A DNA stretch of 10,171 nucleotides from a virus. Position 1 is the first letter of the stretch. Each line of letters opens with the position of its first letter. Positions 1 through 1,049 of the stretch are shown in pieces. The notes beneath the pieces were generated by a model that made no database searches, was not told where the DNA came from, and saw only the letters and a program-made list of their open reading frames with translations. Both the position numbers and the translations under genes were made by a program. Location of the stretch: UHGV virus genome UHGV-0316333; one strand, 5' to 3'.

Positions 1-387
1 GGATAATACTCTTGCAAATTTAACTCGCACTTTTTGCAAGGTTTTATAGAAAAGTATTTCATCTGTCGAATTTTGATGCTTATATAGTAACATTAAGTTT
101 TGGCTTAGAGTGTGGATCAAATCCAATATTAAATGTTGTGCTTGCTTGGATTTTATATCTAATCGTAGTTGCTCTGTTTCCTCTTTGATTGATTCTAAGC
201 TTTTGATTACTGCTTGTGAAACCTCTGAATCGAATGGTGCAATTAACACCCTTTTACCTTCAAGGTAGCTGAAATATTTCTCAAAGTTTTTTTTATCCGG
301 GTCAGATATAAATGGAATCAAATCTTTAGCTGTGATACCCGAGATAGATGCGAAATTTGCTAAACCACCAATTATTTCTAAAAACAA
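1..387 (-). CDS. Hypothetical protein, N-terminal ~129 codons (partial; continues beyond the left window edge)
   Basis: Minus-strand frame is open from position 435 to position 1, with no tta/cta/tca triplets in plus frame 1 across 1..387. A TTG at 387..385 sits 6 nt downstream of a perfect AGGAGG (399..394 on the minus strand). It is missing from the ORF track only because no stop lies inside the window. Very AT-rich; the translation (MFLEIIGGLANFASISGITAKDLIPFISDPDKK...) is not recognisable to me. Start codon is uncertain (alternative TTGs at 408 and 435). Confidence 0.4.
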   Translation of the reverse strand, partial: MFLEIIGGLANFASISGITAKDLIPFISDPDKKNFEKYFSYLEGKRVLIAPFDSEVSQAVIKSLESIKEETEQLRLDIKSKQAQHLILDLIHTLSQNLMLLYKHQNSTDEILFYKTLQKVRVKFARVLS

Positions 388-822
388 TTTCGGCCTCCTA
401 GTGACCAATTTGATAATTAGACTCTTCTTAAACAACTAAGTATCGAAAATTAGACGTTTTCATTGGAGTCAGGATGCTTTAGATAGTACTACGCATCGTT
501 TAGGCTGCGCCACTACTAGATTTGCAACATTACGAAAATTTAGTTATCTGGTTAAAATGACTATAATCACTCAGTAATAATTTGAATGCTAAGCATCTCC
601 ATGTTCACCCGACCAGATTGTGTTTATAACAATTCCTGGTATTAGGCTATATTCCCTTCATGAATAAAGTCCGCTTCTGGCACATAGCAGCCCTAGAGAC
701 AGTGGCGTAAAGTCATGGAGAATCGGTGGGAGGATATTCAGTTTCATTCATGCCGAAATACGGTAAAATCTATAACAGATAGAAATCATTCAATATTCGC
801 ACTATTGGAAGTTCACCAGCCA

Positions 823-863
823 GCCACAGCACGTTCTTGCATACAACGTGCCTGCGGTTTTTG
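823..863. repeat. Copy A of a ~40-bp hairpin-containing direct repeat (stem GCACGTT / AACGTGC, 9-nt loop CTTGCATAC, then GGTTTTT)
   Basis: ccacagcacgttcttgcatacaacgtgcctgcggttttt matches 1846..1886 (ccgcagcacgatcttgcatacgacgtgctacggtttcattt) at roughly 34 of 40 positions in the same orientation, with the loop sequence conserved. Confidence 0.5.
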
Positions 864-1049
864 AGACCGGTCCGATCATCAAACGAAACATAAAATTAAT
901 TCACATTATGAGGAAAAGTATCTTTTTTGTACTATGTAAATTCAAAGACTTAGCCTCATTTCCCCGATGGTTTTCTCAACACTACTGGTTGTGAGCCCTT
1001 GCAATGTTCATTAATATACGTCTCACAAATAATTCATAGATATTGCAAA

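Follow-up and report, generated by a model that had tools for sequence, protein, structure and literature searches.

The left end of the virus genome UHGV-0316333 raises the question of what is encoded by an open reading frame that leaves the analysed window (the whole stretch of 10,171 nucleotides, nt) on the minus strand at position 1, and whether it belongs functionally to the gene of a GIY-YIG nuclease that starts divergently from it. In our preferred reading, to which we give a probability of roughly 0.5, positions 1-683 present the right-hand part of a 1.65-kb cargo module, and the reading frame encodes a TIR-less protein of the DUF6650 family that acts autonomously, probably in anti-phage defence. 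The connection of DUF6650 to immunity is recent. Under the name ThsG, DUF6650 serves type VI Thoeris as the effector that responds to 2'cADPR. ThsG was modelled as a hexameric tube, and the study left open the mode of action of those ThsG proteins that lack membrane helices (bioRxiv 10.64898/2025.12.03.692087). The family was also newly tied to defence as part of DS-27, a SMEK-DUF6650 fusion, and WP_010377994.1, a DUF6650 protein of E. coli with 158 amino acids (aa), was classified as 'Predicted novel defense gene' with a log-odds of 6.5 (PMC13092281).

Window positions 1-1100 share 99.9 % identity with E. coli VTB97584v (NZ_CP178707.1). In the stretch of this record around the gene, named L001, positions 11039-12683 correspond to -961 to 683 of the window. 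The reading frame continues there for 89 nt past the window edge and codes without interruption for 158 aa and a stop codon (L001 11911-12387). A preliminary description, made from the window alone, had proposed a minus-strand gene running from 387 beyond the edge behind an AGGAGG ribosome-binding site, and both predictions were borne out. Read from the sequence, the start codon is TTG (387-385, minus strand); the AGGAGG precedes it by 6 nt and is nearly invariant over eight genomic contexts of the gene (AGGAGA in two of the eight). The gene is not unannotated, as had been stated: RefSeq carries its product as hypothetical protein WP_175086747.1, and 92 %-identical alleles are named 'DUF6650 family protein'. 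It is a real gene under purifying selection, with a ratio of non-synonymous to synonymous substitution rates (dN/dS) of ~0.1 (0.09-0.15 between alleles).

Positions 1-387, minus strand: DUF6650-family gene, codons 1-129 of 158; open translation without stop, backed by PF20355, dN/dS and the structure model.
Positions 394-399, minus strand: Shine-Dalgarno sequence AGGAGG, separated from the TTG by the 6-nt spacer CCGAAA; read from the sequence.

The preliminary description could not place the encoded protein. Profile searches on the full reading frame now assign it to DUF6650 (PF20355), the only Pfam match of the full-length protein (24.1 bits with a gathering score of 27, E 3.7e-5, profile positions 23-144 of 150); the fragment of 129 codons inside the window scores 19.8 bits. 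The assignment is nevertheless sound because a precomputed PF20355.5 match is present in 31 of 31 close homologues, because a subfamily profile search of 1.84 billion representatives found a small family of 32 clusters, whose members all stand alone and measure ~160-200 aa, and because 9 of 24 aligned family members match PF20355 (best E 3.9e-19). Judged by its sequence, the product is a TIR-less member of the DUF6650 family. Related loci do hold the gene: homologues with 59-93 % identity were found in seven genera besides E. coli, namely Serratia, Erwinia, Klebsiella, Providencia, Shewanella, Aeromonas and Vibrio. An AlphaFold2 monomer model, made on the 92 %-identical allele P0001, presented a helical bundle (pLDDT 81.8) with helices at residues 29-45, 57-77, 81-104, 110-134 and 145-155. 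In the predicted fold, a hydrophobic N-terminal segment rich in Gly and Ser leads into a four-helix bundle, behind which a C-terminal helix follows. S63 and R121 are invariant across the wider family.

The window covers the tail end of a prophage, with tape measure and baseplate genes, tail fibres and the PinE invertase, then the GIY-YIG gene, identified as PD-T4-3. The prophage is a 39-kb, SfV/e14-like element integrated at tRNA-Thr. A 46-nt repeat lies at L001 10738-10783 (window -1262 to -1217) and, 39 kb apart, just past the integrase at L003 25227-25272, L003 being the remainder of the prophage with head, lysis, regulation and integrase genes. A core of 47 nt (L001 10737-10783, window -1263 to -1217) is 100 % identical to the 3' end of annotated tRNA-Thr genes. 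This tRNA-Thr-derived repeat is the attachment (att) site, situated 1.2 kb left of the window. The prophage end, expected in or near positions 1-998, is outside this interval, and no tRNA was found inside it. The terminal segment of 322 bp with the att repeat (L001 10737-11058) recurs with 98 % identity in other strains, and the sequence from L001 12663 (window 663) onward is also common to other strains. Between this conserved terminal segment and the PD-T4-3/pinE block lies a variable slot. Elsewhere it holds retron Ec67 (L004, L006), a restriction endonuclease with a hypothetical gene (L005), a hypothetical gene with RnlAB (L015), or AbiTii together with DUF6650 and a type II restriction-modification system (L002). 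In the source strain it is occupied by the DUF6650 gene and, downstream, a gene for a 219-aa HNH_2 nuclease. An unrelated island, L031, contains the 1.65 kb of L001 11039-12683 (window -961 to 683) again, with 92 % identity and with a CbtA/CbeA toxin-antitoxin pair as neighbour; this recurrence defines the boundaries of the module and its mobile character. The module consists of its own upstream region, the 158-aa DUF6650 gene, a small hairpin and the HNH_2 gene. The earlier suggestion of a separately acquired block is thus confirmed by a discrete mobile module in a slot with other cargo in other strains. The combination of DUF6650 and HNH_2 was present in one of 5,426 complete E. coli genomes.

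The base composition had been taken as a further sign of an island. GC content is 0.33 in positions 1-600, 0.40-0.42 in 450-900 and 0.53-0.63 from ~3900 on. For single features it amounts to 0.329 in the DUF6650 coding sequence, 0.379 in the intergenic region (388-1049), 0.438 in PD-T4-3, 0.494 in pinE, 0.437 in 2472-3900 and 0.564 in the tail genes (3901-10171). The left kilobase is indeed the most AT-rich part of the window, but the break is not at 998, since the low-GC domain reaches to ~3900.

Separately from the module, window positions 2497-4104 (1,608 bp) are inverted compared with NZ_CP178707.1, to which the sequence is otherwise 99.8-99.9 % identical; the overlap is 20 nt at either end. 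This is the PinE-invertible tail-fibre segment in the opposite orientation. Past the att site, ~1.7 kb left of the window (L001 9833-10273), an N-terminal fragment of IetA, an anti-phage ATPase (PADLOC E 1.2e-20), is cut by IS1, and corA is located nearby between two IS1 elements, so the region outside the prophage is rearranged.

The divergent arrangement across ~660 bp was described correctly: the intergenic region (388-1049) measures 662 bp, and the GIY-YIG gene starts with ATG at 1050. The features of this region and of the two flanking genes are:

Positions 388-683, minus strand: the DUF6650 gene's own upstream region (presumed promoter, 5' leader), which accompanies the gene in every context.
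Positions 561-583, minus strand: 23-nt block AAATTATTACTGAGTGATTATAG, a candidate promoter element invariant in the eight contexts and overlapping a -10-like TATAGT (565-560).
Positions 617-634, minus strand: near-palindrome AATTGT(T/G)ATAAACACAAT, conserved in the eight contexts.
Positions 663-1049, plus strand: upstream region of PD-T4-3, with 97-98 % identity to strains holding other cargo.
Positions 824-860, no strand assigned: hairpin of terminator type with TTTTT behind it; the hairpin at 1846-1877 is another, diverged copy.
Positions 1050-1823, plus strand: PD-T4-3, a LEM-3-like GIY-YIG single-gene defence system (PDLC04031 E 3.5e-140, full length; PF22945).
L001 11109-11768 (window -891 to -232): HNH_2 nuclease gene, 219 aa, downstream of the DUF6650 gene.

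The alignment of all eight contexts of the DUF6650 gene begins at ~683. Positions 663-1049 are common to strains with other cargo and are therefore outside the DUF6650 module; the intergenic region is thus a junction of two parts (388-683 and 663-1049). Within the part that belongs to the DUF6650 gene, the invariant block with its TATAGT may be a promoter element, and the near-palindrome, which in most alleles is the perfect ATTGTG-N5-CACAAT, a possible operator. No open reading frame of at least 20 aa was found wholly inside 440-657 on either strand; the ends of this interval are clipped by frames of 35 aa (332-439, plus strand) and 29 aa (658-747, minus strand). A non-coding RNA in the intergenic region was considered and rejected: no Rfam family was found there, and the upstream region was conserved no better than the coding sequence. 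An Rfam E-value scan of positions 1-2600 gave as sole match a sub-threshold CssrB at 1847-1903 on the minus strand (32 bits versus a gathering score of 76).

The hairpin, of the form CCRCAGCACG...CGTGC...GG, flanks the PD-T4-3 cassette as a direct repeat whose copies have diverged; the copy at 1846-1877 lies between PD-T4-3 and pinE. In strain E4 a type II restriction-modification cassette stands directly after the first hairpin copy, with a duplication of 22 nt, and a further copy was found behind the tail-fibre assembly gene of a different prophage (L003 25572-25594). The hairpin at 824-860 marks cassette junctions in the slot. As an aside, the repeat may be a recombination substrate by which cargo is shuffled.

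The contexts of the relatives were collected singly by exact-protein look-ups, one of which (P0004) gave no match. A scan of genome contigs for co-occurrence returned one locus only, in Erwinia. Alleles of ~91-93 % protein identity form a lineage in the other ten E. coli records, in sixteen enterobacterial plasmids and in Erwinia; in every context examined, the DUF6650 gene of this lineage is convergent with an AbiTii-type gene. Further neighbours on plasmids are Gabija-like AAA and UvrD genes, a HEPN protein and a type I restriction-modification system. Slots of P2-like prophages also hold DUF6650 relatives, a Providencia prophage carries the gene alone, and among 50,697 deposited phage genomes none contained it. 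The closest relatives outside Enterobacterales (59-72 % identity), those of V. ruber, Shewanella, V. fluvialis and an Aeromonas-type contig, are promoterless single-gene units with attC-like flanks. These cassette-type copies have GTTATGTAAC directly before the ribosome-binding site, with GTTATGT or GTTAGGT, RYYYAAC after the stop codon, and downstream an attC-like imperfect palindrome ending in GCGTTA. The attC-like element of V. ruber folds at z -6.6, and attC-like repeats recur after the neighbouring reading frames. V. ruber and Shewanella share the gene and the attC-like element, and the next gene differs. Because the relatives are single-gene cassettes of the integron type, the DUF6650 protein is probably autonomous, a self-sufficient unit. 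At the E. coli locus no integron-cassette ends were found, only a decayed trace, TTACACGGACAAG, after the stop codon, and the 3' flank does not fold like attC (z -0.76).

Behind the 67 %-identical copy in V. ruber stands a TIR gene (Pfam TIR_2 with 31.5 bits, exceeding the cut-off; TIR-TM of PADLOC, 8e-64). The pairing is the one known from type VI Thoeris, but this TIR gene is located beyond the attC-like site of the DUF6650 gene, so it is the next cassette. A domain common to the variable downstream genes was also considered and rejected: an all-versus-all BLASTP of 14 of these proteins yielded HNH-HNH and AbiTii-AbiTii pairs only, and most of the proteins were without a match in Pfam and PADLOC. 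Their adjacency is explained by independent cassettes. Three VCR-like attC repeats at L021 4251-6650 flank the DUF6650 gene together with genes for 204 and 310 aa. Their site is a P2-like prophage, with the gpA replication gene on one side and the portal gene on the other, thus integron-type cassettes are present in a phage defence hot spot. Next to the V. fluvialis array, a 204-aa fragment considered as an integron integrase resembled Xer/IntI-type recombinases only below the cut-offs.

The preliminary description had regarded the DUF6650 gene as a possible partner of the GIY-YIG nuclease. Both genes adjoin divergently across the 662 bp in the window, yet their distribution refutes a functional partnership. 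The GIY-YIG protein corresponds over its full length to PADLOC PD-T4-3, a known single-gene defence system, the 5' region of which was present in ~1,040 of the 5,426 complete E. coli genomes versus 11 with the DUF6650 gene, a difference of ~100 times; plasmid copies of the DUF6650 gene occur without PD-T4-3, the intergenic region is a two-module junction at ~663-683, and in strain E4 the restriction-modification cassette lies between both genes. The DUF6650 gene is therefore independent of PD-T4-3, and the partnership ranks last among the explanations considered, with practically no chance left. The gene to which DUF6650 is linked is that of the HNH_2 nuclease outside the window, and an obligate two-gene system heads the list of alternatives, with a minor yet substantial chance: DUF6650 would be the sensor or regulator, HNH_2 the effector cutting phage or host DNA, and neither would work alone. 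Full-length relatives of the HNH_2 protein, which has an uncharacterised N-terminal domain of ~100 aa, form three clusters only among 5.8 billion sequences (99, 86 and 61 % identity), and each of them is preceded by a DUF6650 gene at a distance of 131-143 nt, in three unrelated contexts (E. coli; the L031 island, with a cluster named Serratia fonticola by the sources; Serratia marcescens/sp.). The pairs of E. coli and Serratia are colinear with 68 % nucleotide identity including the gap. Comparing L001 with L031, a hairpin after the DUF6650 stop codon stays paired despite a change from A-T to G-C; it lacks a T-run, and read-through would be compatible with this. On the other hand, DUF6650 occurs without HNH_2 as an integron-type cassette, with AbiTii, and alone in the Providencia prophage; the gap before HNH_2 contains a promoter-like site; and the HNH_2 domain resembles the solved chain 6yex, deposited as 'HNH endonuclease' (E 4.4e-5), which we take to be VcaM4I, a modification-dependent enzyme of a class working alone. 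In the preferred reading of an autonomous DUF6650 protein, the HNH_2 nuclease would be a co-mobilised, possibly coupled, second activity.

The remaining alternatives concern what the DUF6650 protein does rather than with whom. A non-defence accessory function travelling in cargo slots, e.g., as regulator, stabilisation or addiction factor, or in surface or stress functions, would agree with a generic helical bundle lacking a PADLOC match, with the many functions encoded by integron cassettes and with a defence role that is inferred. We consider it unlikely: the gene recurs beside known defence genes in prophages, plasmids and islands, its family has two experimental links to defence (ThsG and DS-27), and an E. 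coli DUF6650 protein of the same length has a high DefensePredictor score. Slightly less likely still is an orphan ThsG: a TIR protein encoded elsewhere in the cell would supply 2'cADPR, or a signal related to it, and the DUF6650 protein would extend the Thoeris response in trans. Membership in the DUF6650 family and the TIR gene behind the V. ruber copy would fit, as would E. coli PEC414 (L026, NZ_CM168006.1), which has a chromosomal type VI Thoeris locus and a TIR-less DUF6650/AbiTii pair on a plasmid; this may be coincidence. However, the V. ruber TIR gene stands beyond the attC-like site, and in Shewanella, where the copy has this attC too, the gene that comes next is unrelated. Type VI Thoeris DNA was present in 78 of the 5,426 E. 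coli genomes, the source-type genome was not among the 60 best of 82 E. coli records with such DNA, and sequence similarity to the ThsG of the ACN001 type was absent. Counter-defence, in which a soluble, ThsG-like ring encoded by the prophage would soak up cADPR-type signals and blunt the Thoeris of the host, is very improbable. The prophage location and a TIR-less protein without the clear multi-pass membrane segments of validated E. coli ThsG are in line with it; absence from all 50,697 deposited phage genomes, presence on conjugative plasmids and in chromosomal integron arrays, and a position in a lysogeny-type cargo slot instead of an early region speak against it.

Phage defence is hence the most likely function that we infer for the DUF6650 protein. 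It would be anti-phage defence of the abortive-infection or growth-arrest kind and, by analogy to ThsG, the protein may work as an oligomeric ring activated in the course of infection. A number of observations weigh against this reading. Support for the defence role comes from sequence, context and analogy, for the protein and its close relatives alike, and a location in defence neighbourhoods is circumstantial evidence. The AbiTii-linked alleles are all ~91-93 % identical, so this linkage may reflect a single recent lineage. The protein's own Pfam score is below the gathering score of 27, and no PADLOC model matched it. A TIR gene was not annotated in 65 kb around the gene. An hhalign comparison of the family alignment with a 243-aa ThsG homologue of the ACN001 type, i.e., from a homologous locus with a ThsB 90 % identical to that of E. 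coli ACN001, revealed no similarity (probability 0.2-0.3 %). The structure model had no informative structural neighbour, as a generic four-helix bundle. The hydrophobicity of the N-terminal segment is only moderate (Kyte-Doolittle 1.35-1.47), so membrane insertion is uncertain. Finally, when the minus strand of 388-683 was scanned for a consensus promoter, no convincing or strong sigma-70 match came up.

Tentatively, and with clear reservation, we propose that small TIR-less DUF6650 proteins constitute a distinct autonomous immune class: a ring-forming bundle that may sense infection itself or a non-TIR nucleotide signal, and that may have begun as an integron cassette and later gained HNH_2 or AbiTii. 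In Enterobacterales the gene is joined to an HNH_2 nuclease or to AbiTii, elsewhere it is a single integron-type cassette. If such a class exists, the ThsG fold would be a general-purpose switch not restricted to Thoeris. At 158 aa and without a TIR partner, the DUF6650 protein is small and easy to clone, hence suited to examining what the fold does alone. The cargo slot at the tRNA-Thr prophage end is well delimited and could serve as a source of further systems. For the annotation of the window the result is modest: ordinary prophage cargo, independent of PD-T4-3, with the prophage end outside the window.

Compared to known systems, the protein resembles the effector of type VI Thoeris in its Pfam family, in being a small helical protein without similarity to domains of known function, and in its residence in defence slots of mobile elements; the type VI loci of E. 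coli, too, are situated in P2-like prophage hot spots. Unlike these loci, the module has no TIR gene, and its linked neighbour is the HNH_2 nuclease. Validated ThsG proteins of E. coli have ~240 aa and clear N-terminal membrane helices, in contrast to 158 aa and one weakly hydrophobic segment here. DS-27 ('SMEK', WP_087896215.1) is likewise an accessory gene of E. coli with a DUF6650 region and protects from phage as a single gene, but in its 299 aa an N-terminal SMEK domain is fused to the DUF6650 part, which lies at 169-292 (HHpred probability 0.88). WP_010377994.1, encoded by 477 nt, has with 158 aa the same size as the window protein; the likeness is one of size and family. Integron cassettes are known to encode phage-defence systems (bioRxiv 10.1101/2024.07.02.601686; 10.1101/2024.07.02.601719), and motifs of the window protein were not found in one supplement of the former study. 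The relatives of Vibrio, Shewanella and the Aeromonas-type contig (59-72 % identity) have the form of such cassettes, as promoterless single-gene units with attC-like flanks, whereas the E. coli copy has its own upstream region of 300 nt and a decayed cassette trace only. The location itself corresponds to the cargo slot of e14/SfV-like prophages distal to Pin and to P2-type hot spots, between the invertase/tail-fibre block and the prophage end. The e14 element of E. coli K-12 carries mcrA distal to its Pin invertase. Slots of this kind hold interchangeable defence genes, HNH nucleases included; the DUF6650 and HNH_2 content is what sets the slot studied here apart, with its single occurrence in 5,426 complete E. 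coli genomes.

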